Origin: Maritimibacter sp.
GTDB lineage: Bacteria; Pseudomonadota; Alphaproteobacteria; Rhodobacterales; Rhodobacteraceae
NCBI GenBank assembly: GCA_050633625.1
Contig: JBOEGW010000002.1
Location: forward strand, 565-64,564
DNA length: 64,000 nt
Direction of reading: 5' to 3'
The notes below the pieces were generated by a model. The model worked only from the letters and a program-made list of their open reading frames with translations. It searched no databases and was not told where the DNA came from. This document shows, piece after piece, positions 23,276 to 55,763 of the stretch; position 1 is the first letter of the stretch; each line of letters starts with the position of its first letter. A program made the position numbers and the translations under genes.

Positions 23276-23474
23276 TGCTCTTCTCCTTGTTTGCGTTGCA
23301 ATGATGGTCACCTTGCAGCTGGCCAAGGCCCGGTCACACCGAAGGCGAAGCGCAGCGGAGAGGGGCAGGCGCCGGTCTTTTTGCTCCGCGCGGAATGACC
23401 CGCAGGGGCAGGGGAAAAAGATCGGCGACAACCTTTGTGGACGGGACGACAGCTGCGACCAGCATGTCATGCAA
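22941..23474. repeat. 534-bp direct repeat, copy A (partner at 50777..51310)
   Basis: Aligns without indels to 50777..51310 at a constant offset of 27,836 bp. Covers the DUF736 CDS (2 aa differences) plus about 200 nt of upstream leader. Confidence 0.9.
23372..23425 (-). promoter_or_regulatory. Conserved leader hairpin, copy A
   Basis: CCGGTCTTTTT ... AAAAAGATCGG arms enclose the conserved core GCTCCGCGCGGAATGACCCGCAGGGGCAGGGG. Lies 97-150 nt upstream of the DUF736 ATG. Confidence 0.55.
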
Positions 23475-24179
23475 AGCAACACATCGGGAGAAGTGCTCTG
23501 GCCAGGAAGGAAACTAGGTGATCTGCCGAGGGAGATGCTGCGGGGGGCGGTGTCTTCTCTGTCCTCTTGCCCGGAGACGCACCCGGACGGGTCAGAGCTT
23601 TGCCTGACCCTGCCTCACGCGCCGCCACGGCTGGTTTCCATGGCAACGCGATGTGTGTTGTCTGGCAGAGCAACTGGGAAACCGTCGGAGCCTCGACACC
23701 CTGCTCGGCTTACCCGGATTTCGAAAGGACCCTCCACGGCAGACCGAAGTATTACGATTTGCGCGTCACGACCACCACCAGCATTGTGCCAGCTGCGGCC
23801 AATACAATCCGGCGGTCGTCGGACCTCGTTTGCGGCCCATGATCGCGGCGCGGAGCTGCTTGTCCAGCAAAACGAGGACCAACACCGACCGAGACGCGAG
23901 GTACGTGATCACTGATGTCACGCGCCCGCCCCAGCGACCGAAACCGAAATGGCCGAGATGAAGCGTTGCCACGACCATGCGACGGCTGGTCGGGCTGGCT
24001 CCGGAGGAGACTGCGCTGCCAGCGGCACGTCGCAGGGAGAGGCGGCGTTTCAACTCGGGGAGGGCGGCTGCGTGCAGCCGACCGAGTAGGGTGCGGTCCT
24101 GGCCAAAGGGCAGGAGGGGCCAATGTTCCCCTTGAATGCTTCATCTTAAAAATCAAAAGTTACTTCAACGGCAGGGCCA

Positions 24180-24782
24180 TTGAGACAGACGGAACACACT
24201 TTGATTGAGCTGAAAATCGAACTGGTTGGCATCAAACCACCCATCTGGCGCCGTATACTCGTGCCGAATGACATCAGCTTGGACATCCTGCATTCCGTTC
24301 TCCAGGGCGCTATGCCTTGGCAGGACTATCATCTGCATGAGTTCGAGATTGGCGAAGACAGGTTCGAGGCCCGCGACGAACGTGACGACAGCTGGGACCC
24401 AAACGATGGCCGGAAAGACGAAAAGAAGTTTGCTCTTGGAGAGCTGGTCAAGAAAGGCAGTCAGTTCACATACACTTATGATTTCGGCGATGGTTGGCGA
24501 CATCTCGTCACTGTCGAGAAGGTTAGCAAGCCAACCGGAAGACCCGATCTGGACTTTCCTGCCTGTGTTGCCGGAGAACGCGCGTGTCCGCCAGAGGACA
24601 GTGGAGGGCCCTACTCTTACGAAGAGTTTCTCGACGCGCTGACCGACAAACGCCACCCGGAACATCGTGATACAAAGAAATGGGCCGGCGCGTTCGAACC
24701 GGAAGTGTTCAGCGTGCAGCAAGCCAATGCTGCCGTCGGTGCGATGTTTGTTTGGGCAAAAGAGCGCCGCGATCGAAAGTGA
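24180..24782 (+). CDS. Plasmid pRiA4b ORF-3-like family protein
   Basis: LKIELVGIKPPIWRRILVP...LHSVLQGAMPWQDYHLHEF...YTYDFGDGWRHLVTVEKV...CPPEDSGG is the hallmark pattern of this family. Confidence 0.85.
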   Translation: MRQTEHTLIELKIELVGIKPPIWRRILVPNDISLDILHSVLQGAMPWQDYHLHEFEIGEDRFEARDERDDSWDPNDGRKDEKKFALGELVKKGSQFTYTYDFGDGWRHLVTVEKVSKPTGRPDLDFPACVAGERACPPEDSGGPYSYEEFLDALTDKRHPEHRDTKKWAGAFEPEVFSVQQANAAVGAMFVWAKERRDRK

Positions 24783-25117
24783 GCCTAACGCTGTCTTGCA
24801 ACGCTTGCTCCGGCATAGACGTTGGCAATGTGATGCGATCTTCCGAAGCAGCGTCCAAAGAAACCATAAGCGCCGACGTGCAAACGGCACCGCAATAGGC
24901 AACCAAACCTGCTCGGGTAACGATAACCGAGAATTATTGTTACCGTACTGAGACGGCGCAAACCTGCTAAAACCAAATCGGTTTGCCTCTGGTTTTTGTC
25001 CAAGCTAGGCAACTGATTATTGGTGGTGCGCATCCTTCCGGCAAAACGGACCGTTCTTGACCCGCTTCTTGACATCCGTGACTGGCCTCCAAGGCTTGGT
25101 CGACAGGAAGTTTAGAC

Positions 25118-25438
25118 ATGCGTATTGTCTGCTCAAGAGCAATCGTTATCCGAAGGGGCACTCACTTGGCCTATGTAATTGTTGGCGTTTCAAGCACGAC
25201 CGGAACAATCCATCGACTCACACCGATGAAAGAGCGTGGCGAGTACCAACTAACGGCGCCAAAACTTACTGCCGACGAACGGAAGCGTGAAGTCAACTAT
25301 ACTTGGGTGGCTGATATTGAGGAGGTCGTTCGTCTCATTGAGAAGGAAGGCTATTATGCGCGGATGTACAACGTCGAAAACGATCAAGCTCCAGATATAA
25401 TTGCAAATCAGTTTATTAAGGTATTTCGACTGCCCTAA
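25118..25438 (+). CDS. Hypothetical protein (start uncertain; possibly ATG 25226)
   Basis: ORF only. The C-terminal 70 aa (MKERGEYQLTAPKLTADERK...) look protein-like. No motif recognised. Confidence 0.3.
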   Translation: MRIVCSRAIVIRRGTHLAYVIVGVSSTTGTIHRLTPMKERGEYQLTAPKLTADERKREVNYTWVADIEEVVRLIEKEGYYARMYNVENDQAPDIIANQFIKVFRLP

Positions 25439-25559
25439 GTCGTTGGGTTTGCTATAATCAAAATAAAACGGATTACTGACGTCGCCTAGCAATGTAATCC
25501 AACCTTTTATCTTACGCTGCTGACTATCCCGCCCGCCGTATTCCGGCATCACCAGCCTC

Positions 25560-26117
25560 ATGGCAGGATCCGGAATTTTACATCAACATGCAGCCAATTT
25601 AGGTGATCTTATGGAAGTTCTCTTTTCAACAACTCTCAAACCCATGGCCGACTTTGAGGTGGGAGAAATCGGTCTCTGCAACTTTGGCAGAGGGGCTGAA
25701 TTGGCCATGCTTGTCATCAAACTCGAGGAAGATCTTGGTTTCGCTACAATGCATGACCAGGGTGATGACCTGTTCAGTATTCACTATGTGGAGCACAGAC
25801 TTGACCTCTGCCTTTCGTATGGCCAAGACTGGAAGCTGGTGATCGACCCGACTGGGGATATCCAAATGGGAGGTTACGCTTCACCTGAAATTGGCGACAT
25901 GGTCATGTGGAACGGTGCCTATGGCTTGTGCGCGGCTCAGCCTCGAGGCCCCATGAAGAACAAGGTCAACTTTCCACTGACTGGCACCGTTTCTAATAGG
26001 TCACCCATCGAAGCAATATTTAAGTCTTGGAAAATTGTCCTCAACGAGAATGATCCCGAGACTGGCCTCGCTCCCGTAATCTTCCGCCGCCCCTCAAAGC
26101 AGGTTTCGCAGCCTTGA
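25560..26117 (+). CDS. Hypothetical protein (185 aa)
   Basis: Uninterrupted ORF in a low-GC region, convergent with the TIR gene. No motif recognised. Confidence 0.45.
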   Translation: MAGSGILHQHAANLGDLMEVLFSTTLKPMADFEVGEIGLCNFGRGAELAMLVIKLEEDLGFATMHDQGDDLFSIHYVEHRLDLCLSYGQDWKLVIDPTGDIQMGGYASPEIGDMVMWNGAYGLCAAQPRGPMKNKVNFPLTGTVSNRSPIEAIFKSWKIVLNENDPETGLAPVIFRRPSKQVSQP

Positions 26118-26143
26118 TTGAAACATTGCCAAAAGAAGGAACC

Positions 26144-27088
26144 CTACTGGAGTTGTTCGATCAGCATGTCCCAGTATAGTTCTGCTCCACCTTCAAATGT
26201 GAGCTTAACACCCTCTTGGCGACCAAACCCCATCCCAAGGCTTTTCATAAACAAGGCCTGCTCATCAGCTTCTACAGTAAGCTGCTCGTTGTAGCCGGTG
26301 GTGGCAGCGTTCTCGCTCCCTGAGAAGGCAATTCCACCAAAATGTTCTGACCCCATAAAAATGGTGCACGCACTGACTTTTTTGCCGTCGCGATAACAGA
26401 CTGCCGTGAACCTGTTGGCGTCGATACGCCGAAATGTCCCTTCGATCTCTGGATTACGAGCTGCAAGTTCGGTCAAAGAATTCTCAAAATACTTGGCCAT
26501 ATAGTCGAACGCCTCATGCAGAAAGGCGTCACGATCACGGTCTGTGAACGACTTGGATACTCTCAGATTGCTTGATCTAATGCCGGGATCGGCCATCATA
26601 GGTGAAACCGGCTGGGTGGCTTCAGGTAAAGCCTGAGATTGCGCTGAACCGCCAAGTCGCTTTGCCGCTTTCTGAACAGCTTGGGCAACCTCCCGAAACG
26701 CCTGATCTCTATCAGGCCACTGCGTGACTGGTTTTCCGTCGGTTGGAACTCCAAGAATTTTGCCAAATGGTGTATCGTGCCAAAGGCAATCACGCAAGAT
26801 GACTGGAATGACGATTGCTTCCTTCCGGTCATGCCTCTCAACGGCCCGCAACATCTCCTTTTCGTAGCAATATTCAGATGCAAGAAAATCGGAACTGATC
26901 AAAAGAAGTATGATGTCATCGTTCTCAACGTGAATGTCGATCTCACCACCAAACTCTTGGCCAGGATCAATTCGCCGGTCGTGCCATGTCTCGATCAAAC
27001 CTTGGCGTTTCAAGATTGCCAGTTGCTTTTCGAGCTGGTCGCGTAGCACCTCGTCGGCATGGCTGTAAGAGAAGAAAACTGAAGGCAT
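26144..27088 (-). CDS. TIR-domain protein with an unassigned C-terminal domain
   Basis: N-terminus SVFFSYSHADEVLRDQLEKQLAILKRQGLIETWHDRRIDPG...DIILLLISSDFLASEYCYEKEM...VIPVILRDC is the canonical bacterial TIR pattern, including the candidate catalytic Glu region. Residues about 150-314 are not assignable. Confidence 0.9.
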   Translation of the reverse strand: MPSVFFSYSHADEVLRDQLEKQLAILKRQGLIETWHDRRIDPGQEFGGEIDIHVENDDIILLLISSDFLASEYCYEKEMLRAVERHDRKEAIVIPVILRDCLWHDTPFGKILGVPTDGKPVTQWPDRDQAFREVAQAVQKAAKRLGGSAQSQALPEATQPVSPMMADPGIRSSNLRVSKSFTDRDRDAFLHEAFDYMAKYFENSLTELAARNPEIEGTFRRIDANRFTAVCYRDGKKVSACTIFMGSEHFGGIAFSGSENAATTGYNEQLTVEADEQALFMKSLGMGFGRQEGVKLTFEGGAELYWDMLIEQLQ

Positions 27089-27359
27089 CGCAATTCCAAA
27101 TCATATTATTCTGGAGTCTGTTTACCCGATTTTTTCTAGGCTGACAGTGGATTAAAGGATGTGCCCTTTGCCCCGATCCACGTCCCGCTAGTTCTCACGT
27201 TCGATGTCTAGCTCCCGCTCGTCCTGTTCTTGGTGATGGACGCTGATTGTGAAGGTCTCTGTGATCCCCAGATTTGGTCTGGCGAGTTTAATTGACTTTA
27301 CCACAACCAGCGAATAGCGATTTAGAGGAACAAATTAAGAACGAAGCGGAGTTATTTTC

Positions 27360-28787
27360 ATGCCGAAGAACATTCTAATTTTCTCGGATGGGACCGGACA
27401 AGTCGGTGGCATGAAGCCAGACCAACGGCTCTCAAATGTCTATAAGTTGTATCGTGCGGCCAGGCCCGGTCCATCCTCCCCGATCAAGCCATCTGAACAG
27501 GTTTGCTTCTATGACGCAGGCCTCGGGGCGGGAGAAGTTGGCGGGTTGACGTTTCAGCGAGTGCGCAACGTGCTTTCTGCGGCAGTAGGCACAGGAATCG
27601 ATGAAAACGTTATCGATTGCTACGAAAAAATAATTTCCTACTACGAACCAGGTGATCGCATCCTTGTGTTTGGTTTTTCACGTGGTGCATACACCGCACG
27701 CGCCGTAGCTAACGTGATGAACCTCTGTGGCATCCCAACCAAAATGCCGGATGGATCTGCTGTCCCACGCTATGGAGCGCCGCTCAGGAAGATCGCAAGC
27801 GACGCAGTCAATTTCGTCTACAATCACGGGAACGGATACTCGCGCGGTCAGGAACCCTATTTTACCCGAAGGGAAGAGCTCGGAAGGCGGTTTCGGCGAA
27901 AGTACGGGAGTTTCGTCCCTGATGCGGAGGAAGATGTTCAGGGCAACGTGCAGCCTACATTCATTGGCGTCTTTGATACGGTTGCAGCGCTTGGAAATGT
28001 CGTTGTCGGATATCTTATAGTCGCGAGTTTGGTGGCACTAGGCGGTCTGTTCTCTGCGGCGTTGTACTGGTCTTGGCATTGGATATTTTGGTCCGTCCCT
28101 GCGGTGTTACTGACCATCATTTCATATTGGTACATCAAGTTGCGCTGGTCGCAGTTCAAGTACTTTTCTCCCGATCCCGAAAAGCCATTGAGAATCTCGA
28201 ATCCGCGCGACTGGTGGGCGATTTGGAAGCACGGTCACCGAGCAGTCTGGAATCGCAAGAACTATGACAAATGGCTAGATTCCGATGTTGGGTTTGCCCG
28301 TCATGCATTGGCCATAGACGAGCATCGGCGAGACTTCCCCCGGGTTAAGTGGGCGATGAAAGCCGAGGCGGCCAAAACATCAGGCAGAAAGCCCGAATGG
28401 TTGAAACAAGTATGGTTTGCCGGGTGCCACAGCGATGTGGGCGGCAGTTATCTGGAACCAGAATCTCGACTCAGTGACATTGCGTTGGACTGGATGGTCA
28501 GCGAGTTGAAGGAATGCGTTCCTGAGATAAAGATAAACAAGAACATTCTTTTCCGATCTCCGGATGCTGTCGCTCTTCAACACGAAGAAACATACATGTT
28601 CAGGTTCGGCCCACTAAAGAGGAAGTGGCCGGCCAAACCACGTATCGTCGATCCAATTTTTAAGCTGCACCCATCGGTAATTCAGCGGCTTAAGGCTGAC
28701 TCTGTGCCTCAAGTTGGTGAGGTGAAGCCCTACCGGCCTGAACAGCTTAGGGAACACCCGCAAGCTAAGAAGTATTTCGAGGACTGA
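27360..28787 (+). CDS. DUF2235 (Tle1-like) alpha/beta hydrolase with two internal TM helices
   Basis: ILIFSDGTGQ start, nucleophile elbow VFGFSRGAYTARA, GVFDTVAALG and GCHSDVGGSY motifs. Hydrophobic insert YLIVASLVALGGLFSAALYW / IFWSVPAVLLTIISYWYI (aa about 214-259). Confidence 0.85.
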   Translation: MPKNILIFSDGTGQVGGMKPDQRLSNVYKLYRAARPGPSSPIKPSEQVCFYDAGLGAGEVGGLTFQRVRNVLSAAVGTGIDENVIDCYEKIISYYEPGDRILVFGFSRGAYTARAVANVMNLCGIPTKMPDGSAVPRYGAPLRKIASDAVNFVYNHGNGYSRGQEPYFTRREELGRRFRRKYGSFVPDAEEDVQGNVQPTFIGVFDTVAALGNVVVGYLIVASLVALGGLFSAALYWSWHWIFWSVPAVLLTIISYWYIKLRWSQFKYFSPDPEKPLRISNPRDWWAIWKHGHRAVWNRKNYDKWLDSDVGFARHALAIDEHRRDFPRVKWAMKAEAAKTSGRKPEWLKQVWFAGCHSDVGGSYLEPESRLSDIALDWMVSELKECVPEIKINKNILFRSPDAVALQHEETYMFRFGPLKRKWPAKPRIVDPIFKLHPSVIQRLKADSVPQVGEVKPYRPEQLREHPQAKKYFED

Positions 28788-28891
28788 TAATACCAGTGGT
28801 CAGCTTGGTGCAGGACAGGCAGAATGTGACGTACCATGGCGAAATGATGTGTGTTTCCTTCCAAGAAATTCGAACGAGTGGGGGCTGACTG

Positions 28892-30505
28892 ATGAAAATG
28901 AAGAGCCTAAAAAAATACAAGGTGGGCGGCACAGGATCCAAAATGCAGCTAGCTATTCCGCTGCCTCAAACACCGGACGGACGCGTTTACCGCTATTCTC
29001 CGAATGAAATCGCGCATCCCCGACACTTCGTTCTTGGCAATAGGGAAGCCGGTTTTGTCGTCGAAGAGCACAAGCGTGAGCGGATGAGGCAGGAACCAGG
29101 GACGACAAAGACTGTATGTCCTTACAGTGGTGTCATCGGCGATGACGGGGACTTCACACATCCGAAGGACCAGGAGGCCGCGATCAAGATCGTCAAACAT
29201 GCGGCAATGCAAGACGTCGAATCTGCATTGTCGGATATGCTCAAAGGCGTCGCTCAGAAAAGTCGTGGTGGGATCACTTTCAAGCCAGGTGCACGTACAC
29301 GTCGCCCAAACCCGCAATTTGGTCGACGTGATCTCATGCGCCTTCTGATTTGTGACTGCTGCGGGCGAGATTATGGCGTCTTCGCGATTGCGCTCTACTG
29401 TCCGGACTGCGGTGCCCCAAATATCGCACTTCACTTCGGGCGAGAGGTTGAGCTCGTCTTGCAGCAAGCCCGGATAGCAGAGGATTTGGGTGAAGATCGA
29501 CAAGAACTTGCGTACCGTCTCTTGGGTAACGCGCATGAAGATGTCCTGACCGCCTTTGAAGCGGTACAAAAGGTAGTCTACGTTCACAGGGTTTCTAAGG
29601 AGGAATCAGGTGTTGTGCCTGCCAAACCTGTGCGCAACGATTTTCAGAATGTCGAAAGGGCTCAAAAACGCTATGCTGAATTTGGCTTCAATCCGTTCTG
29701 CGCGCTGTCCGAGGACGAACGAGAGCTGCTCGATCTCAATATTCAGAAGCGGCATGTGATCGGACACAATCTCGGTGTGGTTGATGCCAAGTTCGCAGAA
29801 AACGCGCGAGACGCGCGCCTAGGTGAAACCGTGGAGCTAGTTGGGTCTGAAATTCGGGAGTTCGCCAGATTGTGCCAACTAGTGATTTCGGCGCTGAATG
29901 ATTGGCTTGGGGGCTTAAGCTTTCCGATTGCCCCAAAGGCTGAGGGGGAAACGGGCGGCGGGAACGAACCCGAGACTAAGGAAGGCACAGTGGGGGATCT
30001 TGGTAGTCTGGCATCCAGGATTGGCCGTTGGCTCTGTGAACATTCGGTTACTGGTATGCCCGACAATATCGACGAGGAGGGCGTTCTGACGGCATTTTCG
30101 GATATGGAAGAAGGCGAGCTGAAGGAGGCGTTAGCTGAGCTTGAAATGGAGAGCTGTGTCGTGCTGTCGCATGTAATCGGAACGCGCCTCCCACGCATCC
30201 AAACGGCAGAGGAACTCTTTCTGGTTTTTGACCCCCTTGTCTTGAAGTCGAGCCCGATCACAGACGCTTTGCATCTCGTCGATCTCGTTTTGGCGGGAGA
30301 TGGCTCAGTGAGCTTATCCGACTTACATGATCAAAGCGGAATGGACCAAAGGCGGTTCAACCCGGCGGCAGGGATGATCGTGGCAGAGATTGGCGAAGGT
30401 CGTGTGAGCCGCACATACTCGCCTGACTATCCGGCGAGGTATTTCACGATGGCCTCAGAGGACCGTGTCGCATTGAAGCGGCTTGGCAAACAGTTGACAG
30501 GGTAG
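28892..30505 (+). CDS. Hypothetical 537-aa protein with a central zinc-ribbon
   Basis: Long ORF. CDCCGRDYGVFAIALYCPDCG (CxxC-x13-CxxC). Isolated KRHVIGHN (R-x4-H) segment. Otherwise unassignable. Confidence 0.7.
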   Translation: MKMKSLKKYKVGGTGSKMQLAIPLPQTPDGRVYRYSPNEIAHPRHFVLGNREAGFVVEEHKRERMRQEPGTTKTVCPYSGVIGDDGDFTHPKDQEAAIKIVKHAAMQDVESALSDMLKGVAQKSRGGITFKPGARTRRPNPQFGRRDLMRLLICDCCGRDYGVFAIALYCPDCGAPNIALHFGREVELVLQQARIAEDLGEDRQELAYRLLGNAHEDVLTAFEAVQKVVYVHRVSKEESGVVPAKPVRNDFQNVERAQKRYAEFGFNPFCALSEDERELLDLNIQKRHVIGHNLGVVDAKFAENARDARLGETVELVGSEIREFARLCQLVISALNDWLGGLSFPIAPKAEGETGGGNEPETKEGTVGDLGSLASRIGRWLCEHSVTGMPDNIDEEGVLTAFSDMEEGELKEALAELEMESCVVLSHVIGTRLPRIQTAEELFLVFDPLVLKSSPITDALHLVDLVLAGDGSVSLSDLHDQSGMDQRRFNPAAGMIVAEIGEGRVSRTYSPDYPARYFTMASEDRVALKRLGKQLTG

Positions 30506-30557
30506 GTATCCGTCTTTCCAATCGGCAATTCTTGATGAGGCGATTACAAATGACCTG

Positions 30558-31568
30558 CTATGACCACACCGCTAATGGTGAGAATGAGATAGCCCTTCCT
30601 TCTTCCAAATCTTCCATAAACGTCTTCCACCGCTCCCGCCCCATTCTGACAGAGCAGTACCCTGCAGCCATAGCCGAAAAGCCAGTTAGGACTGTTGTCA
30701 GGTCATCGATGAATCCGTCTGCGAGTTTTGGAACTGCCTTGCCATACGCGAGGTAGATTGCATCACGATAGTTTGCTTTTCCCCGATATCTGGAGGCCTC
30801 ATGCAAGAAGCATATGCTCTTTCTACCAAAGGCATCGTCCCGCAACGCGCGTGCGGCTTTAGTGCGAAAATTGTCTACTCCCAATTCCTTGAATTCACGC
30901 GAATTTCTAACTTGTTGCTCAAGGTTCCATTGCTCCCAAGATGCAGTGCCCGACAAGTACTCTGCGTGACAGCCCCACGCCTGTTCTGGGGTTCTGGGTA
31001 CAGATGTGAGTGAGTGACTGCCACGGGATCGAGGCCCGGTTAGATCGCCCTCCACATCAGATTTGACGAGGCTGCCTAGCCGGTCGCTGAAGGGCGCCAT
31101 TGCCAACTTTGCTTCGACGATTTGTCGGTCCCACTGGCGGGCCGTTGAAGCGTGGGTCTCTGGAAACGAGCCGTCGGCTGCGGCGATCATTGCAGAGGCT
31201 GCGCCGTAGACACCATAGTACCATGTCACAATCCCAACACGTGCAACGTCGGCCTTGTTCGGCACTGCGGCCATTCCGCGAAGAGCAGCGATCTGATGCA
31301 GCGAGAAAAGCAATTGTTCGAATACCGAATTCAATTGGCGCTCGCTCAACTCCTTACGTTGAACCCGTCCATAGAATGCTTGGGCCGTACTGAAATCCAA
31401 AGCGCAATCTGAGACCAGTATGGCTTCCGCCCGCATCCAGTTTAGTGTGGATGGGAGTGCAAAAACCGCGTCTGGAATCTCCTCCGGTGTCTCGGTCAGT
31501 GTCCCGTGGGTGCGCATGCGGGTGTATAGTGATGTCATTGGCATTTCCTTCCGAGTAACTTTTTTCAT
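30558..31568 (-). CDS. Hypothetical 336-aa protein
   Basis: Long ORF convergent with the 537-aa gene (52-nt gap). Helical composition. The EASRYRGKANYRD segment is vaguely reminiscent of YaaC/HEPN-like proteins but is not assignable by eye. Confidence 0.7.
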   Translation of the reverse strand: MKKVTRKEMPMTSLYTRMRTHGTLTETPEEIPDAVFALPSTLNWMRAEAILVSDCALDFSTAQAFYGRVQRKELSERQLNSVFEQLLFSLHQIAALRGMAAVPNKADVARVGIVTWYYGVYGAASAMIAAADGSFPETHASTARQWDRQIVEAKLAMAPFSDRLGSLVKSDVEGDLTGPRSRGSHSLTSVPRTPEQAWGCHAEYLSGTASWEQWNLEQQVRNSREFKELGVDNFRTKAARALRDDAFGRKSICFLHEASRYRGKANYRDAIYLAYGKAVPKLADGFIDDLTTVLTGFSAMAAGYCSVRMGRERWKTFMEDLEEGRAISFSPLAVWS

Positions 31569-33206: not shown

Positions 33207-33214
33207 GGTCACTT

Positions 33215-37275: not shown

Positions 37276-37356
37276 GAATTCGTTGCAGACTCATTGTTCA
37301 AAATGCTTGGCGCGTCCCTTGAGCCAAATTCCCAGAACCAACATAATATTTTTGAC

Positions 37357-47807: not shown

Positions 47808-47967
47808 GCCTGTTTCTCACCTCCGGTTAGTTGGAGGCAAAAGAAAGCCGTTCGCTCAGGAGCGTTCGTCGTTGACAGTGATTCGTGGGAGAGGTATCCT
47901 CTAAGCGACCAAACTTTTCAGATTAGCTCTCAGGCCACACTGCTTGGGGGCTTTTCTTTTGCCTAGA

Positions 47968-48966
47968 TCATTGTTCCGACTGCTCCTCTTTTGTCGCGAG
48001 GAAATCGCTGTAGAGCTGATCCAGTCGACCGGAGAGAAAGTCCCCGAACTCGGTTGAATCTTGCGCCGTTAGCGAAATACTGAATGCCTTACCGGACCGC
48101 CCGATGACGCCTTTGATGCGGCCTTTGCCGGCGGTCCAGGTGCGTTTTTTGGGCGCAGCGCGTGCTTTACGGCGCTTCGGCGCCCTGCCGGCTTCTGCCA
48201 GTTTGCTGTGCAAGAACTCGAAGCGAGCATCACTATCAAGATGCTGAAACCCGTCAAACTCCAAGGCTTCTTTCAGGATCTTGTCATTCGCGGGCTCCAA
48301 AGCCAGCTTTTTGAAATCCTCCCAACGATCCCGTCCGATCTGCTTGGCTGGGCCAATCTGCTCGATAACGTCCCGCGGAACGTTCTGAGCCACCGAGAGC
48401 ATGCGCGAAAGCAGTGTCCCATCAATGGTCAACGCAGCTTGGATCACATCCTTTGCCTGCCCCATATCCAAGAGATTCTTCGCGAACAGCGCCTTCTCGA
48501 TGAACGAGAGATCTGCGCGTGCCGTATTTTCCTGCCCTTGAGCAAGAATGTGCGCCACATCGTCCATTGGTTTGACAACAGCGCGAACCTTACGGTTGAG
48601 CGCCGACGCAACTCGCACACGGCGATGCCCGAAGACGATCATGTAGCGGCCGTCTAATTCCGGATGCGGGCGAAGCAATACTGGTGTGTCCTGGCGGCCG
48701 GCAGCGATCGATGCCTTCAGTTCATCGAACGCCTGATCGTCATCACTGAGGCGATCCGAGACAAAGGACACGTCGATCAATTGTGGATCGATCTCCACAA
48801 TCGTTTCCCCTTCGAGGAGACGCTTCGAGTTCTCCGCGAGGCTGTCGATTGAAACTTTCATCGACTTCGAAGCACCGCGCATTGCGTAACCAGAGCGGCC
48901 AGAATCCTTGGGTTGCTCAGGGGAACCGCTCATGACGCTTTTCAGGAGGTCTTTCCGAGCCATCAA
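47968..48966 (-). CDS. repB: Partition protein RepB (ParB family)
   Basis: ParB-box VFGHRRVRVASAL and an HTH region. Lies between repA and repC. Confidence 0.9.
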   Translation of the reverse strand: MMARKDLLKSVMSGSPEQPKDSGRSGYAMRGASKSMKVSIDSLAENSKRLLEGETIVEIDPQLIDVSFVSDRLSDDDQAFDELKASIAAGRQDTPVLLRPHPELDGRYMIVFGHRRVRVASALNRKVRAVVKPMDDVAHILAQGQENTARADLSFIEKALFAKNLLDMGQAKDVIQAALTIDGTLLSRMLSVAQNVPRDVIEQIGPAKQIGRDRWEDFKKLALEPANDKILKEALEFDGFQHLDSDARFEFLHSKLAEAGRAPKRRKARAAPKKRTWTAGKGRIKGVIGRSGKAFSISLTAQDSTEFGDFLSGRLDQLYSDFLATKEEQSEQ

Positions 48967-49066
48967 GCTAACTCCTTTGCTTTGCGATCCAGCCCACGCT
49001 CTGCACTCATCCGATCAGTTGCAAGGCTGTCAAAATCGGAGATCTGCACGGCTGTCAAAATGTCGG

Positions 49067-50278
49067 TCATTCGCGCCCCCAGGCCTTGTGAATCAGCTCT
49101 GCGATCTCGTCGTTCACGTCGTTCAAAGAAGTGACAGCGCGATCATAGGTGGTCCGGACAAACTGCGACCGCTCGACTTCGTAGAGCGTCTGCTTCGTGA
49201 TCCCTGCGTCGGATATCGCGGTCGATTTCAACACTGGAGCCGACAGCATCTGATTTGGAAACATTGCCTGGAGGAACCCGACCATCTGCTTTTGGGGGCC
49301 GTCCGTCGGTTCAAATCGCGTTACGAGGTAACGGAACCACTTCAGGCGCATGTTCGCTCCAGCGTCACGGATCGTCTTCATGATCCCGCCCAACATCAGA
49401 AGAAACTGGCTCATCGACATGACGTCCAGCATCTGAGGATGGACGGTCACAATCACCGAAGATGAGGCCGTCAGAGCGGTGAGCGTCAGGTAGCCCAACT
49501 GAGGGGGGCAGTCGATTACGACCACATCATAGCGCTCATCAACCTCGCCGAGCGCTTTGGATATCCGAGTGAAGAAGGTTCGGCCCTCATGGGGGTCGCT
49601 GCTCGTCAGTGCAACCGGGGTATCATATTCGTACTCTTGCAGCTCGAGGCTTGCCGGAACGATATCCAGATTTGGAAAGTTTGTCGGTCGGATAACTTCG
49701 GAGATGGGCTTGCGCTCGACATCATACCGGAGTGTCTCATAGAGCGATGGCACGTTGTCGAGTTCAGGCTGAATACCGTGCAAAGCTGTCAGCGAAGCTT
49801 GAGGATCCAAGTCGATCGCAAGAACGCGATGCCCCTTCAGCGCCAAATGCTGAGCGAGATGAGCTGCGGTGGTGGTCTTTCCGCTTCCCCCTTTGAAGTT
49901 CACGACAGACACAACGTGCAACTCTTCGCCTGGCTGTCGGTAGGGCACATATCGACGCTTGCCGGGCCGACCATGTTTGTCCAGATAAGCTCTCAGCTCG
50001 AGCATCTGCTCCGCAGAGTAACTACGCCTTCCGGATGACGACGTTTCAGGCTCGGGGCCTTTGCCCTCGAGGTGAAGCTTCTTGATGGTCGACTGGGTTA
50101 CGCCAAGATAGTAGGCAACCTCCGCCAGCGAAAACTGACGTAGACCTTTCTGGGCATCTGGAGGATACTGTTCCTGCCGCAACATATTGAGACGGTCAGA
50201 AATCAACTCTCCCTGCTGAAGGATGATCTCGTCGAAGGGTTGATCCTTCGTATCAGCCGTAAATGACCTATCTCGCAT
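49067..50278 (-). CDS. repA: Partition ATPase RepA (ParA family)
   Basis: N-terminal HTH extension plus deviant Walker A VVNFKGGSGKTTTAAHLA and DLDPQASLT. Confidence 0.9.
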   Translation of the reverse strand: MRDRSFTADTKDQPFDEIILQQGELISDRLNMLRQEQYPPDAQKGLRQFSLAEVAYYLGVTQSTIKKLHLEGKGPEPETSSSGRRSYSAEQMLELRAYLDKHGRPGKRRYVPYRQPGEELHVVSVVNFKGGSGKTTTAAHLAQHLALKGHRVLAIDLDPQASLTALHGIQPELDNVPSLYETLRYDVERKPISEVIRPTNFPNLDIVPASLELQEYEYDTPVALTSSDPHEGRTFFTRISKALGEVDERYDVVVIDCPPQLGYLTLTALTASSSVIVTVHPQMLDVMSMSQFLLMLGGIMKTIRDAGANMRLKWFRYLVTRFEPTDGPQKQMVGFLQAMFPNQMLSAPVLKSTAISDAGITKQTLYEVERSQFVRTTYDRAVTSLNDVNDEIAELIHKAWGRE

Positions 50279-50738
50279 CCGCCTGCCCTCTAAATATCGC
50301 TTTTTCAGCGATTTCGCTCTTTAAAGTGTTATCTACACGGAAAAATGAGTCTTAACAACGATTTTCACCCAGAGGTTCGAACCCACTCGATGCACCAGGC
50401 GGTTTAGATGCGGCGACAACCTGTAGCGATCACGGAACACCGCGACTCAATATATAGGGACAATAGCGACATCTTCGACGCAGATATTGGGTCACGTCTC
50501 GCGGCGAATCCTATCTAACCTTCTGTTTTATATTGAATTTATGCGACTGCACGGCTGTCAAAACACATGCAGGTCTAGGACTCGAAACGCCCGACAGTAC
50601 CTCGAAACCTAGGGTGCCAAAACGAACAGTATCGGCCGGGATTTACAAACGGACTATGATCATTTGCTGCCGTTCCGCTCTTCAATCACGGCAGACCAAC
50701 ATATAACCAAGTCGCTTCAGGGGCCTAGAAGGCAGCGG

Positions 50739-50764
50739 AAATCGGCTGGGTTGCCCCAGCCGAT
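50739..50764 (-). terminator. Hairpin downstream of DUF736 copy B
   Basis: AATCGGCTGGG-ttgc-CCCAGCCGATT is an 11-bp perfect stem 9 nt after the stop. The U-tract is weak. Confidence 0.4.
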
Positions 50765-50772
50765 TCTTTGCG

Positions 50773-51111
50773 TCACGCGGCGTCTTTGGGACCCCAGGGG
50801 ATGACGGCCTGCAGGGACAGATCGTCCTGGTTCGCGGCCTTGCCGAGGTTGGCGTTGAAGCCGTGGTCGCGGATGGTCAGCGTATAGTAGTCGGCGCCGG
50901 TCTCCTTGTTCTGCTTCTTCCAGATGCCGCCGCACTCGACCAGCTTGCCGCGCGGGGAGCGGCCGAGGACGCGGTGCGTGGGGGCCATCGGGTTCGTGCT
51001 CGCGACGGGTTCGACCGTGATGTCGAGGTCGAAGGTCAGGGTCGAAATGGAGCCGATCCCTTTTGCGGTTTCGATGTCGGCGCTGGTGAATTTGATGCAG
51101 TTCGTGGTCAT
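50773..51111 (-). CDS. DUF736-family protein (copy B, 112 aa)
   Basis: Differs from copy A at two residues (T18I, A39T). Confidence 0.85.
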   Translation of the reverse strand: MTTNCIKFTSADIETAKGIGSISTLTFDLDITVEPVASTNPMAPTHRVLGRSPRGKLVECGGIWKKQNKETGADYYTLTIRDHGFNANLGKAANQDDLSLQAVIPWGPKDAA

Positions 51112-51310
51112 TGCTCTTCTCCTTGTTTGCGTTGCAATGATGGTCACCTTGCAGCTGGCCAAGGCCCGGCCACACCGAAGGCGAAGCGCAGCGGAGAGGG
51201 GCAGGCGCCGGTCTTTTTGCCTCGCGAGGAATGGCCCGCAGGGGCAGGGGAAAAAGATCGGCGGCAACCTTTGTGGACGGGACGACAGCTGCGACCAGCA
51301 TGTCATGCAA
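50777..51310. repeat. 534-bp direct repeat, copy B (partner at 22941..23474)
   Basis: See copy A. Collinear with no indels. Confidence 0.9.
51208..51261 (-). promoter_or_regulatory. Conserved leader hairpin, copy B
   Basis: CCGGTCTTTTT ... AAAAAGATCGG arms around GCCTCGCGAGGAATGGCCCGCAGGGGCAGGGG. Confidence 0.55.
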
Positions 51311-51698
51311 CTCAGACAAAAGGAGAAGTGCGGTGGCCGCGAAGCCGAGGGAGATGTTGCAAGTTGGCGATCTATCTTGAAGCCGACTTCTTAGCCCGGT
51401 GGAGCCGACAAGTCGCGCTCTCGGGAACAAGAAAACCAATTTCAACGCAACGACGCTGGCTAAATGACCGAAGAAGTGAGGCTAGTAGTAATCTGGAAGA
51501 AGCCATAGGGCAGGGGGACCGGGTAGGAGAGTTTGCCTGTTGAGGACCCTCGGCTCCGAAGCGGTCATTAAGTTACCGTGCAGCTGATGGCGGCTACGAG
51601 CCCTAGGTTCGGGGTTTCTGCGACATGGCGAATGTCAGCTATAAGGGTCGTGCCACGCTCGAAGTACTCCAAGAAACTACCTTGTGACGAAGCAAACT

Positions 51699-52505
51699 CT
51701 ACAATTCGTAGGGTCGCTTGACACCTAAATCCTCTTTCAGCTTGGCCCAGGTCGCAGCTTCGAATTGCTCCGGCCACTCGACCCCTCTCTGCGCGGCAAG
51801 GCGGCGCGCTCGTGGTAAAAAGGCATTCGCGTAGGCAAGGTGTGTTGCAATCATCGCATCCCGCTCCGCGACCGGCGCAGGAAGGGCTGTAACCAACTCT
51901 TTTTGTTCTTCCGTCAGCAACCTATTCAGATGAAGCGCTCCACCTCGATCCGGCGCGGCGGTTTCTTCGACCAAAAGGTCGATTAGTTTGGTGCGCAGGT
52001 GGAAGATACCCGCGACACCGTTGATGTATTCTTCGCGGCCCGCTGCAAGATGCAGAAGCCCGAGTATGCGAATGAATTCCTCGATCTGACGGAACAGGCG
52101 CGCCGGTGAGGCCTTCGGTTGTGGTCGATCTTTCGGTAACTGGTCGTAACGAACGTCATGATCGAACAGAGGTCGAAGGCTTGCCTGATTCTGTGCTGCG
52201 AACTGTTCGGGCTTCAGGATGATCACATCCGTGCGTGTCCAGTCTGCGGTAATGGCGTTGATCAGCGCGGGACGAACATTCCGATCCCACCACATCACGA
52301 TGTCGCCGGTGCGCGCGACAGCGGCCTTCCATGTTCCGGCGACCTCGTCGGTTGGCCCGTCTTCCGACACCAGAACGAAGTCGATGTCGCTATAAGCGTC
52401 TGCCCGCCCGTTGCCGAAGCTGCCGCTCAGGAAAAGGCCGCGAACGGCAGAATGATCGCGCAGTGCGTTGCTGATAGTCTCAATGACACGCTCTGACTTC
52501 ATCAA
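51699..52505 (-). CDS. Nucleotidyltransferase-domain protein (aminoglycoside/lincosamide NTase-like)
   Basis: GLFLSGSFGNGRADAYSDIDFVLV matches the GS-x(n)-D-x-D polymerase-beta-type NTase motif. The substrate cannot be inferred. Confidence 0.7.
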   Translation of the reverse strand: MMKSERVIETISNALRDHSAVRGLFLSGSFGNGRADAYSDIDFVLVSEDGPTDEVAGTWKAAVARTGDIVMWWDRNVRPALINAITADWTRTDVIILKPEQFAAQNQASLRPLFDHDVRYDQLPKDRPQPKASPARLFRQIEEFIRILGLLHLAAGREEYINGVAGIFHLRTKLIDLLVEETAAPDRGGALHLNRLLTEEQKELVTALPAPVAERDAMIATHLAYANAFLPRARRLAAQRGVEWPEQFEAATWAKLKEDLGVKRPYEL

Positions 52506-52593
52506 CTCTTCCTTTCAAAGGCATACGGGTTCGCACTTCAATGACGTAAGACAGCCGTTGGGGCGCGCAGGAACCGGTGCGGTATGGCGGGTG

Positions 52594-53589
52594 CTACCGC
52601 TTGATGGACCAGATCATCGCGGTCTCGTAGCCAGCGGATTCCAGCAACTCGATCTTGGAAGTCCATCCCGCCGGACAGACGACAAAGGCGGCTCCAATCC
52701 CACGGTTGGCAAACGCCGTCTCGGCGGCGCGTAACAGCGCGCTCGCACCTTCACTGCCTTGGTCGAGAGCCGCCGGGTTGGCCAACTCGGGGTGATAATA
52801 GTCATCAATCACACCCGTCCCTGTGATTTCATGGGCAGGGGGAAAATGTAGCCGTGAGGCGGGCTGTGCGATGACGTATCCCTGCAAATCCTCGGACGCG
52901 CCCAGAACCATCATGTCCCGATCGCGGAGTGTAAGGCTTCGCGTCATCCAGGCTGAGAACCGTGAGTCAGCTTCGGGGTGGATTTCCCAGAAGGGGTCTA
53001 TGTCGAAAAGAACCTGCCGGTTCTCGGCGCTGCGCGCAACGATACCGGGAACATCGTCTTGCGTCGCTTGCCGAATGTCGGCTGGCATTCCCCGGTCACC
53101 AAGGTCGGTGCGCGAAAAGTAGAGCGTAAGGGGCTCGTACCCGTTTGCCTCGAAGGCGCTGCGCCAGTCCTCGCCTGCGACGTAAGAGGTCAAATTGATC
53201 CGCGCTCCGGCTTCATGAAGGGCGTTTTCGGCTGTGGACAGCAAAGCCTCGACTGTGCCGCGCGGCGCATCGGGTGCCACGCAAGAGTCGGGGAGGATCA
53301 GACCTGGTTCACCGAAGGAACCGGCATAGATCGGCGGCACAGGCAGCATCATCGCGTGAACCACGCCCGTGACCTGACCGCCATTCTCCGCGACCTGCCA
53401 AATCTGCTGAAAGGGCTGTTGTTCGGCGGTCAACGCGAAGGTCAGCGCCTTCTCGATCTGCGCGGACGCATCGTCCGCCAACTTCCAGAGGATTGCGTCC
53501 TGCGCGTGGCGTTCGCCCGCGTCCAGCATCAGAAGCTCGACCAGGCGCGGTATGTCGTCGGGTGTGGCTGGTCGAATTGTCTGGGTCAT
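52594..53589 (-). CDS. GNAT-family N-acetyltransferase (apparently tandem domains)
   Basis: Start trimmed to ATG 53589 (MTQTIRPATPDDIPRLVEL). The C-terminal half has the acetyl-CoA-type segment FANRGIGAAFV. Confidence 0.6.
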   Translation of the reverse strand: MTQTIRPATPDDIPRLVELLMLDAGERHAQDAILWKLADDASAQIEKALTFALTAEQQPFQQIWQVAENGGQVTGVVHAMMLPVPPIYAGSFGEPGLILPDSCVAPDAPRGTVEALLSTAENALHEAGARINLTSYVAGEDWRSAFEANGYEPLTLYFSRTDLGDRGMPADIRQATQDDVPGIVARSAENRQVLFDIDPFWEIHPEADSRFSAWMTRSLTLRDRDMMVLGASEDLQGYVIAQPASRLHFPPAHEITGTGVIDDYYHPELANPAALDQGSEGASALLRAAETAFANRGIGAAFVVCPAGWTSKIELLESAGYETAMIWSIKR

Positions 53590-53711
53590 CGCTCGGTTCC
53601 TTGGCTCTCGCTGAGTGCTGCTTCCCCGCTTGTATCGACCGCCTGCACTAGATTGACAAAGCAGGTTAACTCCATAAGCGTTTAGAAAAACTATCGCCTT
53701 TGGAGCGTCGA

Positions 53712-54575
53712 ATGAAGAATGTGAATCTGAACGCGCTCCGTGTGTTCGCGGTTGTCGCATCGCACGCGAACCTGCAACGCGCCGCCGAAGAGCTGAACCT
53801 CTCGCGTGGCGCAGTCTCCCAACGGATCAAACAGCTCGAAATCGAGCTGGGGGTGGTTCTTCTGGTGCGGGGCGCGCGCGGCGTCTCGCTCACGCCGGAA
53901 GGCGAGCGCTGCCGCGCGGCCATAGAGGAAGCCTTAGCGATCCTCGACACGGCGTTGGTGAGCCTCGGCGAGGAGGATGATCGCGTCACGATCCATCTTG
54001 GTTCGTCCACAGCAACGAAATGGTTGATGCCCAGGATGGAAGCTTTCGCGGCCAGGTTCCCGACTGTCTCCCTGACCACACAGGTTCACGAGCGGAGCTT
54101 GGCGCGCAGCCTGGGCCGGAACGAGATCGCGATCTGGCCCGGCAAAACGCAAGACACGAACCCGGCCCACGGATCACGCCGACTGACCGAGATTCGCCTC
54201 ATTGCTGTGTGCAGCCCCGATTTACTGCGCCCCGACTGGCCCATAGGCCTGGAAACCCTGCTGACCCTGCCTCTGCTTCAAGATGCACACCGCCGTTGGG
54301 AAAAGTTGATCAAGGCCACCGGATCTGGCAACACAAACAAGCTGCTCAACTTCGACCGATCCGCCTTAGCTCTCGATGCTGCTATCGGTGGTCACGGTGT
54401 AGCAATCGCGCCGACCTACATGGTGGAGAGTGATCTCCGGTCTAAGAAATTGGTGGAGATTTGGGTCGATCCCGAACCCTCTGATGATGGGCTCTATATA
54501 TCATGGGCAAAGGACCATTTGGGTCAGACGCGTATCAAGCGGATCGTTGATTGGTTTGCGTCAGAATTCGATTGA
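53712..54575 (+). CDS. LysR-family transcriptional regulator
   Basis: LNALRVFAVVASHANLQRAAEELNLSRGAVSQRIKQLE is the canonical LysR HTH. Divergent from the GNAT gene. Confidence 0.9.
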   Translation: MKNVNLNALRVFAVVASHANLQRAAEELNLSRGAVSQRIKQLEIELGVVLLVRGARGVSLTPEGERCRAAIEEALAILDTALVSLGEEDDRVTIHLGSSTATKWLMPRMEAFAARFPTVSLTTQVHERSLARSLGRNEIAIWPGKTQDTNPAHGSRRLTEIRLIAVCSPDLLRPDWPIGLETLLTLPLLQDAHRRWEKLIKATGSGNTNKLLNFDRSALALDAAIGGHGVAIAPTYMVESDLRSKKLVEIWVDPEPSDDGLYISWAKDHLGQTRIKRIVDWFASEFD

Positions 54576-54687
54576 AGCAGTCCTTCGGTTCAGGAAGGCG
54601 AACGGCAGGAATGTACTGCTTGCTGCCCTTTTGCGAAAACAGGGCCAATGGCTGCTTCCTTGAACCAAGCCAAGAACGAACCGGGGC

Positions 54688-55599
54688 CTAAGCCCCGATC
54701 CTCTTGATGCGGATTCCGAGCTTGCGGGCCTTGTCGACGATGTTCGCGGTGATCCCGGAGCCCGGCGTTGCGATCAACCCTTGGGGCATGGTCTCGAGCA
54801 TCTTGTCGTTGCGCTTGAAGGGGGCGGCCTTGCCGTGGCTCTTCCAGTCGGGTTTGAAGACCACTTGGGTGACACCCCGGGTATCTGCCCAGCGGGCGGC
54901 GATCATCTCGGCGCCTTTGGGCGTACCGCCGTGCAGCAGCACCATGTCGGGGTATTTCGCAAGGGTGGCATCGAGGACGGACCAGATCAGGTCATAGGCC
55001 TGATAGTCCCCGCCCGAGAAGGCGATCCGCGTGCCTTCGGGGCAGTGCACCTCGGTCTCCTTGCGGCGCTTGGCCGAGAGATAGGCCCGGCTGTCCACCA
55101 CGGCGGAGGTGAGACCGCGATGTGAGACCTTGGATCCGGTGCGGGGCAACCAGGGCGAGCCCGTGGCGGCCGAGAAGTGGTCCACGGCCAGATCGCGCAT
55201 CTGCTCGAAGGCGTCGCGATGGTCCCAGAGCTTGAGCCCGATCATCTGGAGGCGCTCGAGCTCGACCGAGGCGACCTCGGAGCCGTCCTGTACGCCCAAA
55301 CTTTCCCGGACCTCGAATTCGTTGTCGTCGAGGAGCTTCTGGATATGGGCAAGCCGGCGATGGAAGATAGAGGTCAGGGACCAGAGCATCTCTTCGAGAT
55401 TGTCTTCCAACTGGCTACCGTTGAGAAGGCCGATGGTGGTGTCGAAGAGGGTCGCCATGGCGAAATCGACCTCATCAGGTTGGGGCAGGAGGCGGTGATC
55501 GGTCTCGCCGGGTCCCGGTGTTGCGCCGTGAAGTGCCAGGTGGTCGAGGATGGCGGAGGTCACGTCGGTCTCCTCTTGGATGTCTGTCTGATGGGGCAT
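54688..55599 (-). CDS. DUF2493 (SLOG-type) domain protein
   Basis: C-terminal MVLLHGGTPKGAEMIAARWADTRGVTQVVFKPDWKSHGKAAPFKRNDKML is the DUF2493 pattern. Start trimmed to ATG 55599. Confidence 0.7.
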   Translation of the reverse strand: MPHQTDIQEETDVTSAILDHLALHGATPGPGETDHRLLPQPDEVDFAMATLFDTTIGLLNGSQLEDNLEEMLWSLTSIFHRRLAHIQKLLDDNEFEVRESLGVQDGSEVASVELERLQMIGLKLWDHRDAFEQMRDLAVDHFSAATGSPWLPRTGSKVSHRGLTSAVVDSRAYLSAKRRKETEVHCPEGTRIAFSGGDYQAYDLIWSVLDATLAKYPDMVLLHGGTPKGAEMIAARWADTRGVTQVVFKPDWKSHGKAAPFKRNDKMLETMPQGLIATPGSGITANIVDKARKLGIRIKRIGA

Positions 55600-55710
55600 T
55601 GTCTGGTTCCTCTGTTTGATCTGACCCGATTTGGATGGGGCGATACCAGGACCGGCGGCGACCGGGCCGCATCCGTCAGGATCGGAGCGCAGTGGAGAAC
55701 GCGCCGCGGG

Positions 55711-55763
55711 CCGGAAAATTGCTCCCGCGAGGAATGGCCCGAAGGGGCAGGGGAATTTTCTGG
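55711..55763 (-). promoter_or_regulatory. Conserved leader hairpin, copy C (covarying stem)
   Basis: CCGGAAAATT ... AATTTTCTGG arms around GCTCCCGCGAGGAATGGCCCGAAGGGGCAGGGG. Lies 112-164 nt upstream of the DUF2493 ATG. Confidence 0.55.

Follow-up and report, generated by a model that had tools for sequence, protein, structure and literature searches.

Hairpin elements upstream of DUF736 and DUF2493 genes

We analysed a 64,000-nucleotide (nt) stretch of a Maritimibacter sp. contig (the window; GenBank assembly GCA_050633625.1, contig JBOEGW010000002.1, positions 565 to 64,564), which represents a repABC replicon and in which a hairpin element occurs three times upstream of genes of the DUF736 and DUF2493 families. 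An earlier reading of the letters alone (the sequence-only reading) had described these three copies with a conserved core, complementary arms and a second conserved block, and all of these were found as it had described them. The arms reported there span 23372-23425 (copy A), 51208-51261 (copy B) and 55711-55763 (copy C). The genes behind the copies lie on the − strand, and the families named for them in that reading agree with Pfam: DUF736-A (22937-23275, 112 amino acids (aa); PF05284, expectation value (E) 1.9e-10), DUF736-B (50773-51111, identified with Pfam), which lies directly upstream of repABC, and a DUF2493/YAcAr gene of the SLOG family (54688-55599, 303 aa; PF10686, E 5e-26). From the gene-proximal arm to the ATG we measured 97, 97 and 112 nt for copies A, B and C, respectively. 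Of the distance of 97-164 nt given previously, the lower value holds for copies A and B, while the upper one is the distance from the far arm of copy C.

The three sites are real, but copies A and B cannot be counted as independent: both are part of a duplication of ~570 nt that comprises gene, leader and hairpin; its ungapped core (22932-23231 versus 50768-51067) is 94% identical over 300 nt, and the alignment runs on through the leader. Since A and B stem from one duplication, the window holds two independent versions of the element. One of the duplicated hairpin-led DUF736 genes flanks the putative origin of transfer (oriT), the other the replication module.

From 39 non-redundant homologues, window copies B and C among them, we built a covariance model (R1). 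On the + strand, R1 scored copy B with 87.8, copy A with 87.3 and copy C with 68.8 bits (E 5e-21 to 7e-16), where B and C match partly by construction because both are in the seed of the model; the apical module of copy A reached an E of 7.5e-21. The next-best match in the window scored 14.8 bits. This search returned exactly three copies, all of them on the + strand, and a chance origin of the three copies is excluded. Rfam 15 gave no match over the whole window at the gathering score and none within 50500-56500, around copies B and C, at E ≤ 10; the earlier statement that the element matches no named RNA family was correct.

The 54-nt hairpin is the apex of an imperfect hairpin of 230-265 nt, which reaches from the ribosome-binding site (RBS) and start codon of the gene to an upstream mirror of its leader. 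In copy A, the whole hairpin as defined by DNA folding (23270-23502, + strand) extends from the complement of the DUF736-A start codon and RBS up to the mirror arm. Its apical module (23355-23441, + strand, delimited by R1 and folds) includes the arms at 23372-23425 and contains a mini-hairpin at ~23397-23409 with a GCA loop, flanked by the conserved single-stranded segments CGCGCGGAATG and CAGGGGA. The second block, TCTCCGCTGCGCTTCG, lies at 23346-23361 on the − strand. For copy B, the whole hairpin spans 51101-51343 on the + strand (apical module 51191-51277, second block 51182-51197), and for copy C 55604-55869 on the + strand (apical module 55693-55780, second block 55683-55698), which takes up nearly the entire intergenic gap between the DUF2493 gene and a toprim gene.

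Folded as DNA, the hairpins of copies A, B and C yielded −64.6 kcal/mol (z-score (z) −5.6), −74.5 kcal/mol (z −7.1) and −78.2 kcal/mol (z −4.4), respectively. Within the 64 kb, they count among the + strand windows with the strongest structure and are more stable than their complements by 10-14 kcal/mol (copy A in 240-nt windows: −58.9 kcal/mol on the + strand, −44.6 kcal/mol on the − strand). The mirror arm (L', in the upstream flank on the + strand) repeats the leader (R) almost base for base, including an AAGGAG and a look-alike of the start codon. Across 62 non-redundant elements from unrelated sequence families, mirror arm and leader aligned with a mean local score of 76, compared to 35.5 ± 7.2 for shuffled sequences, and the lower stem carries compensatory changes in the Hyphomicrobiales alignment. 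The second block is part of an extra segment of 25-30 nt found only on the leader (template) arm, at the junction of the upper and the lower stem. A short family of elements lacks this segment (loci L032, L081, L088, L108, L014 and L055).

Long open reading frames (ORFs) run over all three elements on the − strand (22937-23482, 50773-51306 and 54688-55839; 181, 177 and 383 aa), and we rejected them as coding. In 34 non-redundant cases, the frame is interrupted in homologues by stops within the core or behind it; frame-breaking indels occur as well, and the spacing between core and ATG represents all three mod-3 classes. A gene caller based on G+C content at third codon positions (GC3) picks these spurious long ORFs.

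Covariation and strand preference

Between families, the arms differ nearly completely in sequence while their complementarity is kept. The proposed structure obtained a covariation score of 0.426 over the 39 non-redundant sequences. Shuffling of alignment columns gave 0.159 ± 0.013, with none of 500 shuffles reaching the observed value, and sliding the pairing partners by 1-3 columns gave 0.10-0.17. In the P1 stem, 20 of 23 pairs have changed on both sides, and pair 49-55 of the mini-hairpin switches from C-G to G-C in 15 of the 39 sequences. The covarying arms had been taken as a sign of a selected secondary structure rather than a simple duplex protein-binding repeat, and the score of the structure against that of the shuffled columns bears this out. 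RNAalifold proposed another pairing in the long Hyphomicrobiales alignment, between CGCGA of the apex and TTGCG of the junction. Because it competes with the strongly covarying P1 stem, we discounted it and treated it as an alignment artefact or an alternative conformer.

In the apical module, the stem has an A/T-rich top, the segments CGCGAGGAATG and CAGGGGA are single-stranded, and a GNA loop closes a mini-hairpin of 5 bp. Read on the strand assigned below as the transferred strand (T-strand), it runs TTTTG-NNN-CGCGAGGAATG, then the 5-bp stem with its GNA loop, then CAGGGGA-AAAA. Of the 44 copies recovered with R1 (alignment A4), 37 have GNA as their loop on the + strand; the T and C behind the G and A of the loop had been fixed in the search pattern. 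GNA loops closed by C-G form exceptionally stable DNA mini-hairpins; on the opposite strand the loop reads TNC, for which we know of no stable motif.

Stem positions that deviate from Watson-Crick pairing are G.T on the + strand and become A.C on the mRNA strand. Over the arms of all unique elements, 89 G.T pairs were counted on the + (antisense) strand versus 11 on the − (mRNA) strand, and within the well-aligned inner stems the counts were 34 versus 8. Transition mismatches in the lower stem were of the T-strand wobble type in 536 cases and of the opposite type in 177 (null ratio 1.3:1). R1 scored the three copies with 69-88 bits on the + strand and with 9-10 bits on the − strand (copy A 9.3, copy C 10.3). 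Furthermore, the strand corresponding to + folds better in 45 of 46 non-redundant elements, with a mean gap of 10.9 ± 5.0 kcal/mol, compared to 5.0 ± 3.2 kcal/mol for composition-matched shuffles. The sequence-only reading had placed the hairpins on the minus strand; wobbles, R1 scores and folds all favour the structure on the + strand instead.

Putative transfer origin, relatives and variant hairpins

The relaxase operon of the replicon (17125-21692, − strand; Pfam and NCBIfam) comprises genes for a helix-turn-helix (HTH) protein (20979-21692), a MobA/VirD2-like relaxase (19058-20986; VirD2-like by NF010437, E 1e-17) and the coupling protein VirD4 (17125-19098). About 70 nt upstream of this operon, similarity points to a putative oriT nick site, ATATCCTG/CCAA (21752-21763, + strand), where the + strand reads GGCCATATCCTG/CCAACG. 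In sequence comparison this motif matches the nic site of RP4, CTATCCTG/CCCGGC (PMC4814116). In 20 other loci, the 22-mer GGCCATATCCTGCCAACGTCTT, or a variant of it differing by 1 nt, shares the strand of the DUF736-type element and stands ~1.6 kb (1.63 kb) 5' of it; three further loci have a 3-nt variant 2.6-4.2 kb from the element, and the core ATATCCTGCCA is present in 23 other loci. The motif at 21752-21763 also matches the core of T-DNA borders. Because the putative nick lies on the + strand upstream of the relaxase operon, the + strand appears to be the transferred strand, with increasing coordinates leading and the relaxase operon entering last. The strand that forms the hairpins would then be the T-strand and, at the same time, the template of the genes behind the elements. 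All copies lie 3' of the nick motif on the + strand, in the leading direction, and all four hairpin-led genes of the window (the fourth is described below) are on the − strand and point towards oriT, with the T-strand as their template.

We found a corresponding arrangement in pCMU01, which encodes a Ti-type TraA of the MOBQ class. Between traC and traA it contains an inverted repeat and CATAAGTGCG/CCCC, a site resembling the nick of RSF1010 (GGTAAGTGCG/CCCTCCC), and its two elements lie on the same strand as this nick-like site, 3.4 and 5.7 kb into the leading side. Taken at sequence level, pCMU01, with its independent transfer system, gives the same geometry.

More than 120 loci from alphaproteobacterial plasmids and genomes contain further homologues, whose existence the sequence-only reading had suggested to check. 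BLAST matches to the element came from 62-63 plasmids, which belong to Roseobacteraceae and Methylobacterium, and all of them fell into intergenic DNA that carries no annotation. A degenerate core pattern matched at least 119 stretches among contigs of one genome per species. Within the loci found by this pattern, R1 recovered extra copies that the pattern had missed, among them copies with a variant apex. The loci belong to Rhodobacterales, Hyphomicrobiales (Bradyrhizobium, Methylobacterium, Aminobacter, Xanthobacter, Bosea), Thalassospira and Maricaulales; judging by these matches, the element is widespread in Alphaproteobacteria. Wherever a locus has two or three copies, all of them are co-oriented. 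The core pattern also occurred on contigs of non-alphaproteobacterial metagenome-assembled genomes (L014 Chloroflexia, L019 Armatimonadales, L024 Planctomycetaceae, L056 Gammaproteobacteria) and on seven 'viral' contigs (L125-L131, IMG/VR). These occurrences may reflect mis-binning or real spread beyond Alphaproteobacteria.

The gene that follows the element is most often DUF736 and next most often DUF2493. Other genes behind the same apex are a 57-aa ORF in Methylobacterium, a 63-65-aa ORF (53-65 aa for such small ORFs overall) and a 166-aa ORF. An 85-aa ORF with a DNA methyltransferase behind it also follows the element, and in L014 a methyltransferase comes after DUF736, these methyltransferases having been named by eye from sequence motifs. 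Pfam assigned no family to any of six proteins encoded behind elements, five from other loci and one a 53-aa ORF product of the window. In F-like plasmids, such genes are typical cargo of the leading region (PMC11541004).

Directly upstream of copy C lies a primase-like gene (55913-57079, − strand) with the Pfam domains DUF7146 (PF23639) and Toprim (PF13362). In NCBIfam, its product matched TIGR02760 (C-terminal part) and PRK07078, in both cases partially and with scores under the curated cutoffs. Synteny of this gene with the element was seen in 28 of 123 short loci, namely on Roseobacter-group and Methylobacterium plasmids and on a Thalassospira contig, and by this association its product is a candidate reader of the apex. 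A sequence search of the PDB with the DUF736 and the Toprim protein returned no relatives.

A fourth long hairpin (22292-22560, + strand; arms 22402-22418 and 22463-22479, from folding and the inverted repeat) precedes a 53-aa ORF that runs from 22302 to 22141 on the − strand, 0.5 kb from the nick. It folds with −80.5 kcal/mol (z −4.2) and scores only 14.8 bits with R1. Stem, second block and TTG junction are the same as in the three copies, whereas the apex differs, which suggests at least two apex classes. This hairpin is kept, with compensatory changes, in ~25 Roseobacter-group loci. Another variant apex, CGCGATGCAAAG-[hairpin, variable loop]-CGGCGGAAAA, preserves the frame but has both single-stranded segments changed. 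It was found at L001:587-679, L002:710-800, L043:3172-3263, L052:3650-3742, L057:3126-3219 and L120:5807-5890; in the Methylobacterium loci that were checked (L001 and L002) it stands upstream of DUF2493, and L120 is one further locus. At L116:3400-3499, an 18-nt insertion replaces the GNA loop of the mini-hairpin and the copy still scores 73 bits; the triloop is dispensable at least there. In L014, an extra hairpin is inserted in the apex.

Between the nick and the 53-aa ORF, the segment 21961-22200 has pronounced structure on either strand (z −3.9 and −4.6) and contains an inverted repeat (22089-22118); it could be a terminator or carry relaxosome-binding repeats. Downstream of virD4, a candidate additional structure at 16760-17130 was not significant (z −1.07). 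The repABC operon occupies 46527-50278 on the − strand, with repA at 49067-50278 and repB at 47968-48966; for the counter-transcribed RNA expected between repB and repC, Rfam gave no match at the gathering score in this operon. From gene order, with the flanking genes scanned, we infer that the window also contains a virB-type operon.

Proposed early expression from the transferred strand and relation to known systems

Long stem-loops that form on the T-strand in the leading region and rebuild a duplex promoter are known from F and IncI1 plasmids as Frpo/ssp1, ssp2 and ssp3 (PMC11541004, PMC12672017, PMC13478746, bioRxiv 10.64898/2026.01.09.698686). Hairpins of this kind act in zygotic induction, in priming and as roadblocks of synthesis (PMC12672017; bioRxiv 10.64898/2026.01.09.698686). 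Given the structure, strand, conservation and extent of the elements described here, and their orientation to nick sites assigned by similarity, we propose with moderate confidence that they are Frpo/ssp-like single-stranded DNA (ssDNA) structures of the T-strand that would serve the early expression of leading genes after transfer. The sequence-only reading had offered two options, and the evidence favours this one, a ssDNA structure for expression soon after transfer, over an RNA leader or small RNA (sRNA) target.

According to this proposal, the + strand would enter the recipient 5'-first from the nick near 21759/21760, and ~230-265 nt of the incoming strand would fold back upstream of several leading-region genes. 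Because the gene-distal arm is a copy of the gene's own leader that extends from the TTG motif to the start codon and includes the Shine-Dalgarno sequence, the single strand could thereby restore the promoter-leader region in duplex form. The hairpin might then serve as the starting point for an RNA-synthesising enzyme, for which the host RNA polymerase is the likeliest candidate; this enzyme would copy the T-strand towards oriT, so that DUF736, DUF2493 and similar genes would be expressed before a complementary strand exists. The resulting RNA, or the hairpin itself, might prime or pace the synthesis of that strand. Once the DNA is duplex, the hairpin would no longer form. Transcripts that read through from upstream would contain both arms, and the RBS would be hidden in them; expression would thereby stay zygotic. 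Transcription or priming from the hairpin, like the enzyme responsible, is something we infer from the comparative analysis.

Only in one family, L032, is a canonical −35/−10 pair inside the stem clear: TTGACA and AAGCAT are separated by 17 nt, the −35 is base-paired, and an internal loop of 4 nt contains the complement of the −10. Masai and Arai are said to have described in 1997 the same design for Frpo, with a paired −35 and the −10 in a bubble. At the junction, the mirror arm reads TTG(C/A/T) where the leader reads GTG or ATG in 12 of 16 families inspected by eye, and the reverse was never seen; the junction TTG would be a −35-like motif that is present only in the hairpin form. In the DUF736 copies of the window, the best pair, TGGACG-N16-CAGCAT (TGGACR in the Roseobacter-group DUF736 type), lies on the mirror arm beside a bulge and a mismatch and is weak. 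Two other signals were considered and rejected. A sigma-54 reading, TGGC-N7-TTGC on the mirror arm, occurs in one Methylobacterium copy only and fails by eye in a close relative and in other families, and TCCACA upstream of the DUF736 type, read as a DnaA box, is restricted to the Roseobacter group.

Several points weigh against early expression from the T-strand. Conservation is highest in the apex, yet every plausible promoter would lie downstream of it, and its sequence resembles none of the known signals for polymerases or primases. At 17 ± 1 nt from the junction TTG, the families, those of the window included, share no conserved sigma-70-type −10, and in L032 the duplex form of the promoter is at least as good as the hairpin form. 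The near-invariance of the core was partly imposed by the search pattern, which left arms and flanks unconstrained; the sequences are phylogenetically related, so that the shuffle and Wilcoxon tests overstate significance; and about half of the folding-energy asymmetry between the strands is due to G-richness alone. The nick sites of the window and of pCMU01 are assigned by similarity only. Finally, the distance to the nick is 29 kb for copy B and 34 kb for copy C, which is far for 'leading' genes. The region ~24000-38000 has a GC3 of 0.57-0.70, compared to 0.75-0.88 in the transfer genes, and probably represents cargo whose insertion separated copy A from the other two copies; such an insertion would explain the distance.

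The lack of promoter-like hexamers in the apex, the position of all copies on one strand and the conservation of sequence within a structural frame, as is typical of a protein-recognised hairpin, would also fit an initiation signal specific to a primase. The apex would then be read on the T-strand by the DUF7146-Toprim protein of the plasmid, whose gene adjoins copy C and keeps its synteny with the element as given above, and it would prime the complementary strand, with the link to genes being secondary. ssiA and ssiB of RSF1010 are recognised by RepB' in this manner. Such a signal, which is the main rival to the promoter and could also operate alongside it, seems possible to us yet rather unlikely: it needs neither a lower stem of 100 nt that copies the leader to the Shine-Dalgarno sequence and start codon nor a fixed place upstream of start codons, the fourth hairpin combines stem and junction with a different apex, and the Toprim protein has no relative in the PDB and is a primase by prediction only. 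On a similarly tentative footing, the apex might be a dedicated recognition site for a plasmid factor, most plausibly the DUF7146-Toprim protein, rather than a passive cap, and the elements a new class of single-strand initiation signal (ssi), specific to one protein, by which priming of the complementary strand would be coupled to zygotic expression of leading genes on plasmids and integrative and conjugative elements of Alphaproteobacteria. A riboregulator in the 5' leader of the mRNA, where a hairpin of the sense transcript would control translation or stability or serve as an sRNA target, accounts for the location upstream of start codons. A long transcript with both arms would sequester the RBS, CUCC of the second block could pair with the Shine-Dalgarno GGAG, and Watson-Crick covariation alone is blind to the strand. 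The wobbles are not: on the sense strand they turn into A.C mismatches, in the arms as a whole and in the inner stems, the R1 scores of that strand are low, and its folds are poorer beyond the effect of composition. With the TNC loop on the sense strand, to our knowledge not a stable motif, GNA on the other and no match in Rfam at the thresholds given above, we consider a riboregulator improbable.

A duplex operator or cruciform, at which core and inverted repeats would bind a plasmid regulator that represses the leading genes in established cells, would make sense of a highly conserved core in front of several co-regulated genes, of the HTH and MucR-type regulators nearby and of the apex of the short family, which sits just upstream of the −35 where a regulator would bind. 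In contrast to operator half-sites, however, the arms keep their pairing and not their sequence. As a strand-specific wobble is meaningless for a duplex site and the 100-nt mirror of the leader is left unexplained, this alternative, too, has little probability, hardly more than the riboregulator. The strand preference itself does not distinguish ssDNA from a cis-antisense RNA, a + strand transcript across the leader that would fold into the hairpin, and GNA loops are stable in RNA as well. Yet such a transcript needs a promoter inside the first codons of unrelated genes (DUF736, DUF2493 and small ORFs), where none is conserved, the hairpin is not followed by a terminator, and the transcript would not account for how the elements are oriented to oriT in either of the two independent transfer systems. 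We regard a cis-antisense RNA as very improbable.

If the elements are T-strand structures for early expression, they would extend a phenomenon that has so far been shown experimentally for a few enterobacterial plasmids only to a class that includes Ti and Ri, symbiosis and Roseobacter-group plasmids and many integrative and conjugative elements (ICEs). Enterobacterial ssDNA promoters perform poorly in Sinorhizobium (PMC12672017), and our literature search on DUF736, DUF2493 and ssDNA promoters in Alphaproteobacteria found nothing relevant or equivalent. For this class, the sequence and structure of the elements define a family with more than 120 examples, for which a working covariance model and comparative evidence on the strand are at hand. 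The element marks genes that are probably the first to be expressed on entry (DUF736, DUF2493, small ORFs and neighbours of orphan methyltransferases), which would give families of the DUF736 and DUF2493 type a testable role in establishment or anti-defence. For alphaproteobacterial plasmids that lack annotation, the element could further help to tell the orientation of the leading region and of the T-strand, and its invariant apex may lead to a new system of DNA-protein recognition.

Two known groups of ssDNA signals resemble the elements in part. The ssi signals read by primases (ssiA/ssiB of RSF1010 with RepB'; the G4 type with DnaG) are likewise strand-specific hairpins with conserved sequence in a structural frame, and the conjugative plasmid studied here encodes a primase-like protein of its own. 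Those signals measure 40-70 nt and lie at replication origins, not in gene leaders. The apex described here, in contrast, is part of a hairpin of ~250 nt that copies a leader, and we recognised no primase initiation triplet in it. The sso elements of rolling-circle plasmids and ICEs of Firmicutes (ssoA, ssoU and sso1 of ICEBs1) are long, structured, orientation-dependent ssDNA. Only short blocks of them (RSB, CS-6) are conserved in sequence and the rest as structure; they are read by the host RNA polymerase and aid establishment after conjugation. Our elements are also long structured ssDNA that depends on orientation, but they occur in another phylum, lack RSB and CS-6 and are tied to the start of a downstream gene.

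Frpo/ssp1a, ssp1b, ssp2 and ssp3 of F and IncI1 (also known as ssi1-3 of ColIb-P9) are, like the elements of this study, long imperfect stem-loops of the T-strand in the leading direction. Both kinds stand in several copies per plasmid upstream of co-oriented genes that are templated by the T-strand, and both are GC-rich relative to their surroundings; a −35/−10 pair in the stem with the −10 in a bubble is a likeness limited to L032. The alphaproteobacterial elements differ in their near-invariant apex with its GNA mini-hairpin and in the extra 25-30 nt that the template arm carries. Moreover, the copies of the window show no evident sigma-70 boxes, and the hairpin reaches the start codon. A blastn search with 51100-51345 against 5,426 complete E. 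coli genomes and plasmids, F and IncI1 included, gave no match. From these likenesses and differences, the element would best be filed as a sequence-unrelated variant of the leading-region ssDNA promoter or initiation hairpin, with a presumed function of the same kind.

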